Positions 9,354 to 57,957 of a stretch of 64,000 nucleotides of DNA are shown in pieces. Location: positions 13,840 to 77,839 of the forward strand of contig CAZATJ010000002.1 in NCBI GenBank assembly GCA_964488025.1, read 5' to 3'. How positions within the stretch are numbered: the first letter of the stretch is position 1; every line of letters begins with the position of its first letter. Source of the stretch: an uncultured Bdellovibrionales bacterium (GTDB lineage: Bacteria > Patescibacteriota > Minisyncoccia > Moranbacterales > UBA1568). The position numbers and the translations under genes were made by a program. The notes beneath the pieces were generated by a model. That model was not told where the DNA came from. It did not search any database and was given only the letters and a program-made list of their open reading frames with translations.

Positions 9354-10271
9354 TCAGAAGAACTCGGGATGCTGGTAATCCGCCATCACGCCGCCCTTGA
9401 GGAATGACAGTTCCGGATCGGTGTGCTCCGCTTGCGCAAAGTAGCTCTGGCGGATGAACTTGGTGCCCATCTTGTTCACATGCCGCACGTAGCCCTCGGG
9501 GTCCAGCTTTGGATCGGGAGCCTGCCAGATTTTCGTGCCAACGCCACGGGGGAGGATGGGCGCGATACACGGGCCAAAGGTCCGGATGAGCCGGATGAGT
9601 GGCGTGATCTCCTCGACACCCGCGTTGTCGTAGACGTAGAAGAGTTTGCCCTTGTCCCAGGCTTCCGCACGGGACTTGATGGGCGCCTCCTTCTTCGGCT
9701 TGGCACTGCGGAGGTCGAAACCGCCGACCTGCATGAGCGACATGAGGTGCCACATGGCGAAGGTGTTCGCGATGCGGCCTTCCATGATGCTCTTGGTCAG
9801 TTCCGTGATGGCGAGGCCAGTCGCGAGCGCACCGGCTTCGGCGGCTTGGACGAGGTCTTCGGCAGCTTCGGGTGTGAAGTACGCTTCGGCTTCCTTCGAC
9901 AGGATGACACCGTAGTCGCACCCGGCCCGGAGCAGCTTAGCCGTGCCGTAGTTGAGCAGCCCGACGAAGATGTCGCCGTGGCGTACTTCGGACACGTATA
10001 CGTTCTTCCAGCCGGCTGTGGCGATGGCTTCGCGCAGCTGGGCAGCGGTTTCGCCGCAGTCCTTCTCGACGTAGTCCGGGTCCATGGGGACGAGGATCTC
10101 GACGCGTGAGATGAAAGCGCGGTCACCGACGGTCACCGACAGCATCCGTTCGACGCTCGCGAGGGCAAGCGTAACGGCGTTGTCGACGAGTTGCGGTTCG
10201 CGGGCGAAGCAGCGAACGATGGCGCCGATCTTTTTGGAATGCAGCAGTGACGACATGATGAATCTCCGCAT
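9354..10271 (-). CDS. hypothetical protein encoded in a GC-rich island
   Basis: 305-aa ORF at about 60% GC in a 45-48% GC context. No family confidently recognised. Its start lies in a 15-bp tandem duplication. Confidence 0.5.
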   Translation of the reverse strand: MRRFIMSSLLHSKKIGAIVRCFAREPQLVDNAVTLALASVERMLSVTVGDRAFISRVEILVPMDPDYVEKDCGETAAQLREAIATAGWKNVYVSEVRHGDIFVGLLNYGTAKLLRAGCDYGVILSKEAEAYFTPEAAEDLVQAAEAGALATGLAITELTKSIMEGRIANTFAMWHLMSLMQVGGFDLRSAKPKKEAPIKSRAEAWDKGKLFYVYDNAGVEEITPLIRLIRTFGPCIAPILPRGVGTKIWQAPDPKLDPEGYVRHVNKMGTKFIRQSYFAQAEHTDPELSFLKGGVMADYQHPEFF

Positions 10272-10283
10272 GATGAATCTCCA
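10254..10283. repeat. 15-bp tandem duplication covering RBS and start codon (minus-strand GGAGATTCATCATGY x2)
   Basis: Plus strand: catgatgaatctccg catgatgaatctcca. This creates two in-frame ATGs (M1 and M6) with duplicated GGAGA. Confidence 0.7.
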
Positions 10284-10447
10284 GTTGGTAAGCTCTCGGG
10301 GTTCTGTTCCCTTTGAGCATCCCGGTTTTCAAACCCAACCTTGCGGTTGAGGGACATGTCAGGCGTTTTATCCTGACCGACCATTATAGCAGAAAAATAA
10401 TGTATTGTCAATATAAATAAAGAAAAGTGGCTTATATAAAAGAAAGA

Positions 10448-32169: not shown

Positions 32170-33456
32170 TTATCGTCCGATACCCCTGTAAATGATTCCA
32201 GATCTGAAGAAGGATTCTTTGTCGAGGCAGTTTTTTCCGTCGACGACGGCCTTAATCCCGTGTTTTTTGAGGAGTGCCGGCGTGAGAACTTCTTTGAATT
32301 CCTTGTGATCCGTAGCGATGACCAGTGCCTGGGATTTTTTGAGTATGGCCTCGAGAGACTTCATCGTGGAGAGTCTTTTGACGTGGGGATCGAATGTTTC
32401 GACTTTGCATCCGTGATCTTTGAGGTGTTCGATGATGATCAGTGCCGGCGATTCACGCAGGTCGTCGATGTTGGCTTTATACGAAAGGCCGAGTACGCCG
32501 ACGACAGTATCTTTCATAGCCATCCGTTTCTCATTGAGCGCGTCCTGAAGACGTTCTACGGTGTACGCGGGCATCGCTTCATTGGTTTCGATGGCGTGCT
32601 TCAGGAAACCATGGTTGAATCCTGATTCTTTGGCTCGCTCGATAAGGTAGTGTGGATCGACGGGAATACAGTGCCCACCGACACCGCAGGACGGATAGTG
32701 TTTCATAAAGGCGAACGGCTTGGTGCCGGCTCCATCGATGACGTCCTTCACGTCGATACCGAGCCTGTCGAACGACATCGCGATTTCATTGATGAAAGCG
32801 ATGTTGATATTACGGAATGAATTCTCGAGAATCTTGGTCGCTTCCGCCTCGCGTATCGATTTCATCGGCCGAATCTCGGCATCGATGACGGAACGATAGA
32901 ACTGGAGGGACATATCGAGACCTTTTTTCTCAAATGATCCGACGACGCGGGGGATGTTAGTGACGTTCCATTTCGGATCGCCGGGGTTGATGCGCTCCGG
33001 ACAGTGCGAGATGAAGATGTCTTTGCCGATGACGAATCCGTGCTTTTCGAATATCGGACGGACGATCTCTTCGGAAACATACGGATTGACCGTGGATTCA
33101 AGGATAATGAGCGAGCCTTTTTTGCAATTCTGCGCGACAATCGTCGAAGCGTCGATGACGGGTACGAGGTCGGGGTGGTGCAGTCGATCGACCGGTGTCG
33201 GTACGCAGATGATGTGGATATCGGCAGGTGTGATGTCTTTCGGATCGTTCGTCACCTTGAACGGATATTTCAGAAGGTTTTCCTTGAGAAAATCATCCTT
33301 AAAGATATGATCGCCTCTTTTCAGCAGAGCCACCTTTTCCTTGTCGATATCGAAACCGATGACGTCATAACCTCTCTCTTTGGCACGTACCGCGAGCGGG
33401 AGTCCGACATATCCGAGTCCGATAACTGATACTGTCTTGAAGTCGTATTTGACCAT
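32170..33456 (-). CDS. nucleotide-sugar 6-dehydrogenase (WecC/TviB-like UDP-N-acetyl-hexosamine dehydrogenase family)
   Basis: VIGLGYVGLPLAV Rossmann motif, CPERINPGD, GVGGHCIPVDP catalytic Cys block. Confidence 0.85.
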   Translation of the reverse strand: MVKYDFKTVSVIGLGYVGLPLAVRAKERGYDVIGFDIDKEKVALLKRGDHIFKDDFLKENLLKYPFKVTNDPKDITPADIHIICVPTPVDRLHHPDLVPVIDASTIVAQNCKKGSLIILESTVNPYVSEEIVRPIFEKHGFVIGKDIFISHCPERINPGDPKWNVTNIPRVVGSFEKKGLDMSLQFYRSVIDAEIRPMKSIREAEATKILENSFRNINIAFINEIAMSFDRLGIDVKDVIDGAGTKPFAFMKHYPSCGVGGHCIPVDPHYLIERAKESGFNHGFLKHAIETNEAMPAYTVERLQDALNEKRMAMKDTVVGVLGLSYKANIDDLRESPALIIIEHLKDHGCKVETFDPHVKRLSTMKSLEAILKKSQALVIATDHKEFKEVLTPALLKKHGIKAVVDGKNCLDKESFFRSGIIYRGIGR

Positions 33457-33533
33457 AGCAAAGCCTTATACTAAGTAATTAACAATTGTTTCTATTGTAG
33501 AGAAAATCGCTGTTTTTGGCAAACATCTGCTAT

Positions 33534-33646
33534 TGACTTTATCTATTTTTTATGCTATCATATGCAGTCAGTATAGATTTTACTGATATAGGTACGTAGT
33601 CCTTGAACAATTTATTTTTTGGTCTAGTGACCAGAAGGAGTAAATC
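33534..33646 (+). promoter_or_regulatory. promoter (TTGACT-16-TATCAT) plus conserved 5' leader, copy 1
   Basis: About 75 nt is near-identical to 34496-34570. The hairpin TCAGTAtagatttTACTGA starts about 7 nt after the -10 box. Confidence 0.55.
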
Positions 33647-34372
33647 ATGACAAACGCTTTTGAAAGACAGGTCCGTTCACTCTATTCATTAGGAGCGACG
33701 ATTCGTCCAGAACACAGCGCCTGGCTAAGCCCACCTTGCAAAAGTCATTTCGTGACCGTGGTGGGCGGAGACGGTGACTTCGCGTATTCAATCATCGAAT
33801 GGCTGATCGAGTATGTGGGCGTGCCAGCCGAACAGATTGTTTTTGTCAGTCATCTCAGCGCTTATCCGAGTTTGAGCGAGGGATATTTTCAAGGCCACTT
33901 CATTGGTGAGAATGCTGACGATGAAGGGAGAGTGGTACGGCAACAAAAGTACGAGAATGTCACTCGACTCAATTCTCTGGGTGGATACTGTATCAATTAT
34001 TACACCGATGACTTGCAGTATCAGCCGGTTCGGGGTACCCATCTGGCTATTATCGCTCTTTCGAAAGGGATCAATTCGATCGATCGTGTGACGTCACCGG
34101 AACCAATTCCAAATTTGGAGAGTGATGATCCGGTCTTCCAACAGCAATACAAGGAGTGGGAAGACAAGATGAAGACGCGTTTTCTTTTGGCGGGCGCCCA
34201 TGACGCCAATGCCAGAATGGATCTGATGCGAGTGCAAGGCGAGCTTACTTCACTGGGTGTTACTACGACAACAGTCGTGGACACGGAGAACTGGCTTCCG
34301 CAGCAGATTTGGCTGAAAGCGCTGTTTGAATGCTACGCATCTCTTTGGAAGCCGGTTTTGCTAGACAAATGA
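33647..34372 (+). CDS. hypothetical protein
   Basis: 241-aa ORF with AAGGAG RBS. No family recognised. Confidence 0.45.
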   Translation: MTNAFERQVRSLYSLGATIRPEHSAWLSPPCKSHFVTVVGGDGDFAYSIIEWLIEYVGVPAEQIVFVSHLSAYPSLSEGYFQGHFIGENADDEGRVVRQQKYENVTRLNSLGGYCINYYTDDLQYQPVRGTHLAIIALSKGINSIDRVTSPEPIPNLESDDPVFQQQYKEWEDKMKTRFLLAGAHDANARMDLMRVQGELTSLGVTTTTVVDTENWLPQQIWLKALFECYASLWKPVLLDK

Positions 34373-34484
34373 AGGGTCGGGACTGACTCTATGGATTGTC
34401 GCCTGGGAACTCACGGGTTCTCAGGCTTTTTTTATGCTTTTTTACAATCATATCCCTTATTTAAGCCAATATCAGTAAAATACC

Positions 34485-34598
34485 CTTGACCATAACTCTT
34501 TTTTATGCTATCATATACAGTCAGCATAGATTTTGCTGATACGGGTACGTAGTCCTTGAACAATTTATTACCCCTTTTGAAGGGGAGAGAGGCAGAAA
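34485..34598 (+). promoter_or_regulatory. promoter (TTGACC-18-TATCAT) plus conserved 5' leader, copy 2
   Basis: Hairpin TCAGCAtagatttTGCTGA shows a compensatory U-A to C-G change versus copy 1. A second hairpin CCCCTTttgAAGGGG abuts the RBS. Confidence 0.55.
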
Positions 34599-35372
34599 AT
34601 GAAGATCAATATGTTTTCCCCCGTATACAACGTGGTAAAACCGGTCGCTCATCTCATCGAAGAATTTGCAGACGTGGCGCTGATGCTTTTGGCGCGTGGT
34701 CATGAATTGAGCGTCTTGCTCATCAATGACAATTCGACTGACGGCACCGCTGAGGTGATTGATGCAGCCAGCAAGAAATATGACTGGCTCGAAGTTCGGC
34801 ACAATGAAAAGAATCTTGGCAATGCCGGCAATATCCTCGCCGGCTATCTCTGGGGTGCGAACTCTAATGCTGACATCGTTGGTTGTATGGATGCTGATGG
34901 TGAGCATTCACCATACGCTTTGATCCGCCACCTCGGCATGATCGAACGCGGTGAATGCGATGGCGTGGCAGGTAGTATTATTTTTCCTGATCACGACGCC
35001 AACCACCACGACCGTAACATGATGCGTTTCTGGGGTGGCATGCAAGCCGCCATGGCCGGCGTCGACGGAATGTTCTATATCCAGTCACCCGGCTATAACC
35101 TCCATCAGCGTCACCGTGTGGCTCAAGCGTTGGAACTCTTCGAGAAATATCAGCAGTTTTTCGCTGAAAATACATCGGAGGCGTTTCCTCGGTGGGGATT
35201 GCACGGCGTGATGATTCATCTCCTCGCTGTCGGAACGGGCGCTCATATCAAGGCCGTTTATCTGGAATGTTTCGGTCATTCGCCGAATCGTACGCCGGAC
35301 AAGCTGCTCTTGCAGGCGAACGCGGCCAATATCCACACCGTGATGCTGGGCAAATTTCTGCCGAAGAAGTAA
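34599..35372 (+). CDS. soluble GT2 family glycosyltransferase
   Basis: FSPVYNVV, LINDNSTDGT, MDADGEH (DXD). No TM segment. Confidence 0.6.
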   Translation: MKINMFSPVYNVVKPVAHLIEEFADVALMLLARGHELSVLLINDNSTDGTAEVIDAASKKYDWLEVRHNEKNLGNAGNILAGYLWGANSNADIVGCMDADGEHSPYALIRHLGMIERGECDGVAGSIIFPDHDANHHDRNMMRFWGGMQAAMAGVDGMFYIQSPGYNLHQRHRVAQALELFEKYQQFFAENTSEAFPRWGLHGVMIHLLAVGTGAHIKAVYLECFGHSPNRTPDKLLLQANAANIHTVMLGKFLPKK

Positions 35373-35378
35373 ACAAGT

Positions 35379-35393
35379 CCTTACAGCGTAAGG
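35379..35393 (+). repeat. stop-proximal hairpin CCTTACagcGTAAGG within the AAGTCCTT family motif
   Basis: 8 nt after the stop of 34599-35372. A paralogous hairpin lies at 35721-35735. Confidence 0.5.
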
Positions 35394-35421
35394 TAATCCA
35401 ACACAGAGAAGGAGTCATGAA

Positions 35422-35712
35422 ATGACCAATAGCAGGATTTCGTTGACTGAAATGGGAAGAATTGACCTCAATCATCGATTTGGGCAGATCATGCTCTTTG
35501 CAGGATTCCTGGTGATGTTCTTCCTCGGAGCCTTCGGTCTGATTGCCTTGATCTGGAGTCATTGCGTAGGCAATCCGATGGAAAGCTGGGTAACACAATG
35601 TACCTGGGGTTTCGCCCTCTTGATCGCATTGGATGCGCGCTTTGAAGAGTACTGGTACCAAAAAGTCTTGACAGGTTACAGAGAAGGGGTGATACCTTTC
35701 GAGTTCGATTGA
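35422..35712 (+). CDS. small two-TM membrane protein
   Basis: 96 aa with two hydrophobic helices. Confidence 0.4.
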   Translation: MTNSRISLTEMGRIDLNHRFGQIMLFAGFLVMFFLGAFGLIALIWSHCVGNPMESWVTQCTWGFALLIALDARFEEYWYQKVLTGYREGVIPFEFD

Positions 35713-35720
35713 TAGCAAGT

Positions 35721-35735
35721 CCTTGCATCGCAAGG
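35721..35735 (+). repeat. stop-proximal hairpin CCTTGCatcGCAAGG (AAGTCCTT family)
   Basis: 8 nt after the stop at 35712. Same architecture as 35379-35393. Confidence 0.5.
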
Positions 35736-36000
35736 CAACAGCAGGGAAGGGATGTAAAAATCCCGACCCTGTTTTTTCTTTGCTTGAAAATAAGTGTACA
35801 ATGAAAAGGTAAACCTTTGATGAAAAAATATAGAAATTGCTTTCGAGAATCCTGCCCGATCTATAGAAAAAAAGAGTCACGAACAACAGGAACAGAAAAC
35901 GAAAATTGTCGTGATGCTCGGCGCGCGTTTTTTTCAAGAAGGAAAAGGTGATGGTCGTTCTCCTAGATTTCCTCTTATCCTCGACTCTCAAAAGGAGGGT

Positions 36001-36789: not shown

Positions 36790-36853
36790 GTGCTATGATT
36801 CAATGTCAAAATAAAAGGATATACTGTGTACATTACCAACTGAGGAGAAAGCT

Positions 36854-57728: not shown

Positions 57729-57957
57729 GGAAATCCCCTTTCTTGGGAGGTTGGATTTTGGACAAGTATTTTCAAGGTACGCTGTCCATGATAGCACAAA
57801 ATATACTTTTTGTCAACCCTGCTTGGCAGGGAATTCTCTGCTACAATGAAAACATGATGAGTGATGCTAGATAGAGAAACAGCATGACTTGCCTCGATTT
57901 TTCTTAGGTATTTCATATCATTTATCCTGTATCACTTATCTCTTATTATCTTCGAAT

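Follow-up and report, generated by a model that had tools for sequence, protein, structure and literature searches.

A duplicated promoter and covarying hairpin leader at a glycosyltransferase locus of Candidatus Moraniibacteriota

Stem-loops located at the 5' terminus, such as those of ompA, papA and the aprE leader, stabilise bacterial mRNAs, and RppH of B. subtilis needs a 5' end with no fewer than two unpaired nucleotides (PMC3997798). Knowledge of promoters, transcript 5' ends and post-transcriptional control is nearly absent for the Patescibacteria or candidate phyla radiation (CPR), a group that does not grow on its own, and a literature search on transcription starts, promoters or structured RNA motifs of Patescibacteria found nothing. 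The stretch of CPR DNA analysed here (the window, 64 kb) contains two copies of a promoter followed by a leader, one in front of a gene without family match (the ORFan, gene 1) and one in front of the adjacent gene for a glycosyltransferase of the GT2 family (gene 2). With E. coli ompA hp1, papA and the B. subtilis aprE leader this element shares a short hairpin at the 5' end, followed by single-stranded RNA and then by a strong ribosome binding site (RBS); those stabilisers are promoter-proximal, cis-acting and needed as RNA (PMC3997798), as the present element appears to be, the 5'-terminal position of its hairpin being predicted. It differs from them in having no sequence relationship to any of the three, in the addition of an invariant unpaired box and of a hairpin adjacent to the Shine-Dalgarno (SD) sequence, and in its origin from an uncultivated CPR lineage, for which a stabilising role is what we infer. 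The element is a lineage-specific leader, real but fairly ordinary and previously undescribed, small, confined to one locus and of a well-known type, which putatively belongs to the class of stabiliser leaders. What the locus offers is a clean leader supported by covariation, composed of promoter, 5' hairpin, conserved box and SD-adjacent hairpin.

The repeat, its promoters, the promoter-proximal hairpin (P1) and the terminator between the two copies are located as follows.

33533-33616 and 34486-34569, plus strand: direct repeat of 84 nt, copies 89% identical and 953 nt apart (repeat search of the window)
33533-33561, plus strand: promoter 1, with -35 box TTGACT (33533-33538), 17-nt spacer and extended -10 box TGcTATCAT (33553-33561) (consensus scan)
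34486-34514, plus strand: promoter 2, with -35 box TTGACC, 17-nt spacer and extended -10 box TGcTATCAT (consensus scan, repeat search)
33567-33587, plus strand: P1 of copy 1, GUCAGUA / UAGAUUU / UACUGAU, 7 bp (pattern search, RNAfold, covariation)
34520-34540, plus strand: P1 of copy 2, GUCAGCA / UAGAUUU / UGCUGAU, 7 bp (pattern search, RNAfold, covariation)
34401-34433, plus strand: intrinsic terminator of the ORFan gene, 11-bp stem and T-run (terminator scan)

The original prediction had described a duplicated promoter plus leader, each copy with its own -35 and -10 boxes, and this proved to be real. The repeat itself had been seen correctly, its length and coordinates had not: counted from the -35 hexamer, which forms its 5' edge, it measures 84 nt instead of 75 bp, and the positions were off by 1-6 nt (the 70-nt string quoted at the time is located at 33547-33616 and 34500-34569). 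A block of 26 nt, GGTACGTAGTCCTTGAACAATTTATT, is identical in both copies, the number of matches expected by chance being 0, and in the 64 kb there are exactly two occurrences of the hairpin pattern and exactly two of the promoter pattern. Both promoters reach 10 of 12 in the consensus scan, with the hexamers TTGACT or TTGACC, a distance of 17 nt to TATCAT, and the TG of an extended -10 box. They have the characteristics of sigma-70-type extended -10 promoters, and the same layout was found in 17 orthologous leaders, all of these being predicted promoters. As a strong intrinsic terminator (34401-34426) lies between gene 1 and copy 2, the two genes are read as two transcription units and not as one operon.

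Within P1 the two copies differ by a T>C and an A>G change, and the two positions are pairing partners in the stem, as can be seen from the DNA dyads TCAGTA-N7-TACTGA (33568-33586) and TCAGCA-N7-TGCTGA (34521-34539). RNAfold yielded a 7-bp stem for each copy, with -7.2 kcal/mol and a z-score of -2.1 for copy 1 and -10.4 kcal/mol and a z-score of -3.1 for copy 2, and in both copies the first paired base is the sixth nucleotide after the -10 box. One compensatory pair between two copies would arise by chance with a probability of roughly 0.03 according to our own estimate, which is based on 5 differences in about 49 aligned positions. A single pair of this kind is weak evidence; the strong support for the hairpin comes from orthologous leaders.

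DNA was fetched around GT2 orthologs with 61-88% identity and around the ORFan homolog. The GT2 leaders of the relatives have a common plan: the -10 box and P1, a hairpin of 6-7 bp or more, are separated by about 5 nt, and P1 is followed by the box CUUGAACAA, which is unpaired, and by another hairpin (P2), short and rich in G+C, which directly abuts the SD. P1 was predicted by RNAfold at the start of 16 of the 18 GT2 or ORFan leaders. Its stems vary from leader to leader (GUCAGUA, GUCAGCA, GUCCAUA, GUCCGGU, GUCAACA, CUUCACUUC, GCCAACAUAAACA, AUCCG, GUUAAGG) and its loops range from 3 to 38 nt, the position remaining constant while the sequence changes. Two alignments were used to quantify the pairing. 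In the first one, restricted to the arms, the outer 6 bp of 16 distinct leaders were placed in register from the stem base and the loops were replaced by a constant linker; as a control, the 3' arms were permuted among the sequences in 500 rounds. Paired cells amounted to 95.8% compared to 62.7±3.7% after shuffling (0/500), and cells with double changes to 34 compared to 11.5 (0/500). Compensatory changes were observed at all six pairs, 11 of the 96 cells were G·U pairs, and slid registers yielded 12-40% pairing. The second alignment came from a covariance model built from the two window copies alone and taken through one round of iteration; it comprised 12 distinct leaders, with 93.8% pairing compared to 76.6±2.8% shuffled (0/500), covariation at 5 of 7 pairs, and 15 double changes compared to 4.3 (0/500). 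These alignments replaced a treatment of the whole leaders with MAFFT and RNAalifold, which misaligned P1 and recovered P2 alone. The earlier claim that selection acts on the pairing of the hairpin was borne out by this covariance analysis, which had been proposed together with it; the P1 arms covary among orthologous leaders, and the claim now extends from 2 copies to 16-19 leaders.

According to one explanation the similarity of the two copies is a mere footprint of a recent duplication or gene conversion, and the hairpin has no function. The 5' half of copy 1 indeed looks recently homogenised with copy 2, and the one compensatory pair between the copies carries little weight against such a history. 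P1 is, however, retained in position but not in sequence in more than 12 independent leaders, some of them from genomes that have no duplication, and this disfavoured explanation appears highly improbable.

The second possibility raised at the outset was a dyad operator, at which a dimeric repressor would bind to TCAGYA-N7-TRCTGA over the start and repress both promoters. The dyad does overlap the predicted start, which is the classical position for an operator, and 5' of promoter 2, at 34466-34481, there is a third TCAGTA half-site, which is also conserved in a related locus (L007). The half-sites differ, however, between the two copies and among orthologs, no constant half-site being found as the arms vary at all 6 positions and the spacer measures 3 to 38 nt; the changes are compensatory instead of converging on one half-site, and the frequent G·U cells would be meaningless to a DNA-binding protein. 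A G·U pair would be a C·A mismatch on the antisense strand or in a DNA cruciform, and this together with the variable arms and spacing favours a hairpin in the sense-strand RNA. The comparison of leader sequences therefore argues for P1 being a sense-strand RNA hairpin rather than a protein dyad operator; the operator was not borne out and is regarded as very improbable.

34466-34481, plus strand: upstream element CCAATATCAGTAAAAT, an inverted copy (94% complementary) of part of P1 copy 1, namely its loop and 3' arm

This element, in which the third half-site is located, lies just 5' of the -35 box of promoter 2, and its conserved counterpart in L007 reads AATATCAGCAAAAT. It may represent a site for a protein, the trace of a rearrangement, or a sequence offering alternative pairing in read-through transcripts.

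As to the function of the sense-strand hairpin, a 5'-terminal protective stem-loop combined with a tuning of translation, which would give matched expression of both genes, is considered somewhat more probable than not. As in 5' stem-loop stabilisers, the stem is kept as an RNA pairing, with compensatory changes and tolerated G·U pairs. Transcription is predicted to start at the G at the base of P1, which is the sixth nucleotide after the -10 box, or within about 1 nt of it, and in 13 of 19 leaders the first paired base of P1 is exactly nucleotide 6 after the -10 hexamer, which fits a predicted start at or beside the stem base. The mRNA would then begin with P1 and carry essentially no unpaired 5' nucleotides, which would protect it from 5'-end-dependent decay, while the single-stranded A/U-rich box and P2 would set the access of the ribosome. 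With the same strong promoter and the same leader in front of each, both genes would be expressed at matched levels. The fixed distance of P1 from the -10 box may be explained by the requirements of a 5' stabiliser, and nothing else obvious accounts for this distance. That transcription begins at this sixth nucleotide, a G, is a concrete prediction which metatranscriptomes could check. The co-regulation of the two genes that had been proposed is plausible as far as shared expression is concerned, since a distant Moranbacteria genome (L017) independently keeps such a duplicate; for the dedicated regulator which had been part of the proposal no evidence was found, and none was identified.

Several points weigh against the protective stem-loop. 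Canonical spacing of 7 nt would put the predicted start 1 nt inside the P1 stem, and a start at A33570 or A34523 would leave only 4-5 bp. No convincing P1 is seen in the distant GT2 leaders L014 and L018, and the leaders L007_1, L007_2 and L027 do not fold significantly better than shuffles (p 0.15-0.23). Both P1 alignments lean towards structure, as the arms were picked from the folds of the individual sequences in the first one and the second one was fitted to a model; the control with shuffling among sequences addresses exactly this bias and is decisive. Finally, the strict sequence conservation of the box is not explained by a pure stabiliser model.

The box, the second hairpin and the SD sequences of the two copies are arranged as follows.

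33602-33610, plus strand: unpaired box CTTGAACAA of copy 1 (conserved in orthologous leaders)
34555-34563, plus strand: unpaired box CTTGAACAA of copy 2 (motif search)
33620-33633, plus strand: P2 of copy 1 (type B), UGGUC-UAGU-GACCA (fold); the SD AAGGAG at 33635-33640 is a possible pairing partner of the U-tract 33611-33619
34571-34592, plus strand: P2 of copy 2 (type A), CCCCUU-UUG-AAGGGG (34571-34585), then the SD GAGAGG (34587-34592) (fold, conservation)

Across the leader alignment the box CUUGAACAA is unpaired, invariant or nearly so, and embedded in an A/U-rich stretch; the variants CUUAAACAA, CUUUAACAA, CUCGAACAA, CCUGAACAA, CUUGAAAAU and CUUAAAAAU occur in orthologous leaders. In the window as a whole the box is not enriched (11 matches vs 9.1 expected), and an occurrence of CCTTGAAAAT in the leader of a GGDEF gene at 57768 is probably a chance match. 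The P2 hairpins pair in 94% of cases in 10 distinct stems, compared to 47% after shuffling (0/2000). Type A, in which CCCC-loop-GGGG is followed by AGAGAGG, is found in copy 2 of the window, copy 2 of L007, and L020, L021, L022, L024 and L025. Type B, GGYC-loop-GRCC followed by GAAGGAG, is found in copy 1 of the window and in the L027 GT2 leader, where the homologous sequence reads GGCCA-UCG-UGGCC + GGAAGGAG. Two features listed in the original prediction, a UCCUU in each leader (33600-33604 and 34553-34557) and the RBS-adjacent hairpin CCCCTT-TTG-AAGGGG at 34571-34585, are both present; the hairpin is conserved as CCCC/GGGG, and the other leader types have different yet complementary arms. 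The idea that UCCUU acts as an anti-SD sequence found no support: the conserved element is CUUGAACAA, whereas its CCUU part varies among the orthologs (UCUUGAAAA, CUCGAACAA, CCUGAACAA, CCUAAACAA), and the predicted accessibility of the SD in 18 leaders is 0.32, compared to 0.39 for shuffled upstream sequence (p=0.08). Masking of the SD in the leader is thus unproven at the level of these predicted folds.

Four other candidates were dropped by eye, namely an upstream open reading frame (ORF) from the UUG in the box, which is not conserved in L007; a second promoter with TTGAAC as -35 box, which is not followed by a -10 box; a -10-like pause element in the P1 loop, which is not conserved; and an attC or integron-like hairpin, P1 being present also where there is no cassette.

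The conserved box may be taken to indicate a riboregulator, in which a trans-factor (an RNA-binding protein, a small RNA or a small ligand) would read CUUGAACAA between P1 and P2 and switch translation or stability; the GT2 gene and the gene inserted upstream of it would then be genuinely co-regulated. The box is the sole element of primary sequence kept across leaders whose stems have all changed, and it is kept in both window copies and in both copies of L017. The element is restricted to one locus, and several leaders have, 5' of P2, a pyrimidine tract capable of pairing with the SD. Against this stand the lack of any Rfam match even at E values up to 10, the box not being enriched in the window, an SD accessibility not significantly below that of shuffles, and the fact that neither a multi-stem junction nor a terminator/anti-terminator alternative nor a candidate regulator gene adjoining the locus was found. 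The characteristics of riboswitches and attenuators were likewise not observed, as the leader has only two simple hairpins, no U-tract follows P1, and occlusion of the SD is not significant; z-scores for the folding of whole leaders range from -2.0 to +0.3. The riboregulator, including the genuine co-regulation which comes with it, is therefore regarded as a tentative alternative, with rather less than an even chance of being correct.

With FourU and ROSE thermometers the leader shares the arrangement in two hairpins and the U residues pairing with the AGGA of the SD, which are found in copy 1 and the L027 type. In a thermometer of the fourU type P2 and the U/pyrimidine tract would mask the SD, so that translation of both genes would respond to temperature. 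Copy 1 can form a long helix, UUUUUUGGUC/GACCAGAAGGAG, with -11.7 kcal/mol, and in L027, L021, L022 and L020 P2 can be extended in an analogous way by pairing of the SD with the U/pyrimidine tract that immediately precedes P2. Copy 2 and copy 2 of L007 (L007_2) do not form this extension, however, so that the pairing of a U-run with the SD is not common to all members. Type A P2 abuts the best-spaced SD and does not cover it, masking of the SD does not reach significance overall when compared with shuffles, and although the FourU family is contained in Rfam it gave no match at E values up to 10. A thermometer is therefore an improbable explanation.

To define the distribution of the element, the window was searched with the covariance model R2, which matched the two copies only. 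Additional copies, a search for which had been suggested earlier, were found neither by sequence nor by covariance model in the 64-kb window. Across 145 kb from 18 related loci, all matches of R2 were GT2 or ORFan leaders save one weak match (L027 3410-3456, minus strand, E 1.9), which is read as noise. With Rfam 15 at the gathering score no match was found in the whole window, and at E values up to 10 only chance matches appeared, namely manA-II with 16 bits compared to a cut-off of 100 and two miRNA models. A scan of a genome collection, whose representatives do not include the source species, with the pattern of the promoter/P1 junction yielded one true relative, in front of an unrelated gene of a Moraniibacteriota genome (L009), and 4 chance matches. 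The full leader of P1, box and P2 is locus-specific.

A related feature is seen at other strong promoters. For 22 of these in the window and the related loci the first 36 nt folded on average better than shuffles, with a mean z-score of -0.86 (p=0.03), and a downstream control segment had -0.20. In about half of the 22 a hairpin begins at the position known from P1 or close to it, frequently with an RGUC motif in common. This suggests a tendency towards 5'-terminal stem-loops throughout the lineage. A universal 5' hairpin was rejected, since the leaders of EamA genes have none, and what is seen is a tendency only. Examples of 5' hairpins are the minus-strand promoters of the window with -35 boxes at 10411, 11051 and 57816, as well as L004+2283 and L009-3598. 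Promoters at L005 2293 and L009 1903 also belong to the group sharing the core TGCTAT(C/A)AT, members of which often carry RGTC at nucleotides 5-8 after the -10 box with a hairpin starting there.

The relatives show the repeat in the window to be the ancestral GT2 promoter and leader of the Moraniibacteriota rather than a regulon motif of dispersed occurrence. In seven of them (L020, L021, L022, L024, L025, L027, L028) a UDP-glucose dehydrogenase gene and the GT2 gene are directly divergent with no gene between them, and the ORFan is absent from L020-L028. There are two copies of the repeat because the insertion of the ORFan gene took place 5' of the GT2 gene, the ORFan unit (leader, gene, terminator and next promoter) sitting between the ancestral promoter and the GT2 gene. 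This is a natural example of an inserted orphan gene gaining expression signals by copying the resident promoter and leader. From the comparison of these loci the space between dehydrogenase and GT2 gene repeatedly takes up genes, each time with a duplication of the promoter. L017, with a GT2 61% identical to that of the window, has a 200-aa gene at the same position (1674-2276) and its own 84-nt duplicate of promoter plus leader with 75% identity (1528-1611 and 2362-2445), both copies of which keep the box; homology of the 200-aa protein to the ORFan of the window was not established (BLASTP E=0.036 over 23 aa). In L004, which together with L005 represents a second Moraniibacteriota population from the same study, a 101-aa gene (2399-2704) is inserted upstream of the ORFan, and a 94-nt duplicate of the sequence upstream of the promoter, 97% identical and ending at the -10 box, is located at 2218-2311 and 2822-2915. 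In L026 a C-terminal stretch resembling the 101-aa protein of L004 was recognised by eye; its coding sequence lies immediately 5' of the GT2 gene.

Copy 1 has a chimeric make-up. In its 5' half, from the -10 box to the unpaired box, it shares 90% identity with copy 2 but only 66% with its L007 ortholog, while its 3' half is of type B and 70% identical to the L027 GT2 leader. As the 5' half is nearer to copy 2 than to the ortholog it was probably homogenised within this genome by gene conversion, and the stem of copy 1 would have acquired or retained its compensatory pair thereafter. In other cases of homogenised duplicate promoters around inserted genes, as in the present one, direct repeats of a resident promoter flank the gene and the copies are homogenised within the genome. 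The window differs in that a block shared almost without difference by two diverged populations spans the distance between the two -10 boxes, and therefore the promoter core coincides with the boundaries of exchange. This block, 33551-34514 (964 bp), is 100% identical to L004 2905-3868 and L005 43-1007 apart from one single nucleotide polymorphism, 33631 C>A, which breaks a P2 pair. It spans from ATGCTATCAT of promoter 1 to ATGCTATCAT of promoter 2, its flanks are 55-80% identical, and beyond the -10 box the GT2 leader of L005 is a different P1-box-P2 variant. A second block with 100% identity to the L004/L005 population comprises the 3' end of the GT2 gene and downstream sequence (35237-35786). 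A nearly identical block of 964 bp within diverged flanks indicates an exchange of the ORFan unit between diverged genomes, the promoter cores being its boundaries. The alignments suggest a recent recombination bounded by the ATGCTATCAT core, an assembly chimera being possible at the right junction, which is supported by a single k=31 contig; L004, a k=141 contig, stops exactly at that -10 box.

Two linked possibilities, a box read by a factor as part of a locus-specific regulatory RNA of the CPR and a modular exchange of cassettes at the ATGCTATCAT core, would have wider consequences, and are put forward here as unlikely and speculative. If they were true, a trans-factor reading CUUGAACAA would coordinate a cell-envelope glycosyltransferase with whichever gene is inserted upstream of it, and diverged Moraniibacteriota populations would exchange modules of leader, gene, terminator and next promoter whose boundaries are the extended -10 core ATGCTATCAT.

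The genes at the locus and the divergent promoter-like site are the following.

33647-34372, plus strand: ORFan gene (gene 1, inserted cassette gene), 241 aa, without family or structure match
34599-35372, plus strand: GT2-family glycosyltransferase gene (gene 2), 257 aa (Pfam PF00535, 1.8e-18)
32170-33456, divergent from gene 2: UDP-glucose dehydrogenase gene (protein family search)
33494-33522, minus strand: promoter-like site of the dehydrogenase gene, TTGCCA-17-TACAAT (consensus scan)

The block TTGGCAA...TTGTAC of the divergent promoter-like site is conserved in L007, L021, L025 and L027. Homologs of the GT2 protein are labelled as Candidatus Moraniibacteriota or Moranbacteria (Patescibacteria/CPR). 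The ORFan protein had no match in Pfam, NCBIfam or PDB, and in libraries of 5.8e9 and 1.84e9 proteins it had one other homolog with 67% identity; a profile search of the 1.84e9 representatives yielded P0002 only. Among viral contigs neither a homolog of the ORFan nor the promoter pattern was found. The AlphaFold2 model of the ORFan, with a mean confidence (pLDDT) of 50.6, was too poor and was not used for a fold search.

A/C-rich boxes upstream of the SD, such as ACAUUACCAA or UUUACAA, occur in leaders of EamA genes and in some other leaders and recall CUUGAACAA; an enrichment of the corresponding k-mers in other leaders was discarded, being confounded by base composition and orthology. The EamA-gene leaders are located as follows.

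36800-36853 of the window; L021 3390-3453; L027 3419-3471; L017 4253-4300: EamA-gene leaders with A/C-rich boxes

Another structured leader of about 110 nt follows a strong promoter on the minus strand of the window (10271-10411) in front of an ORF of 305 aa. It contains GUCAGG-AUAAAACG-CCUGAC and CCCUCAACC-GCAA-GGUUGGG and has no match in Rfam, and the ORF is situated in a stretch of higher GC content (8-12 kb, GC 0.52-0.54). The region 24000-46000 of the window is a large cluster for cell-envelope glycosylation with several GT2, GT4 and GT1 genes, which also holds O-antigen-ligase-like membrane proteins, EamA and DUF218, as well as an LCP protein and an S41 peptidase identified by eye. The cumulative GC skew climbs steadily over most of the window.

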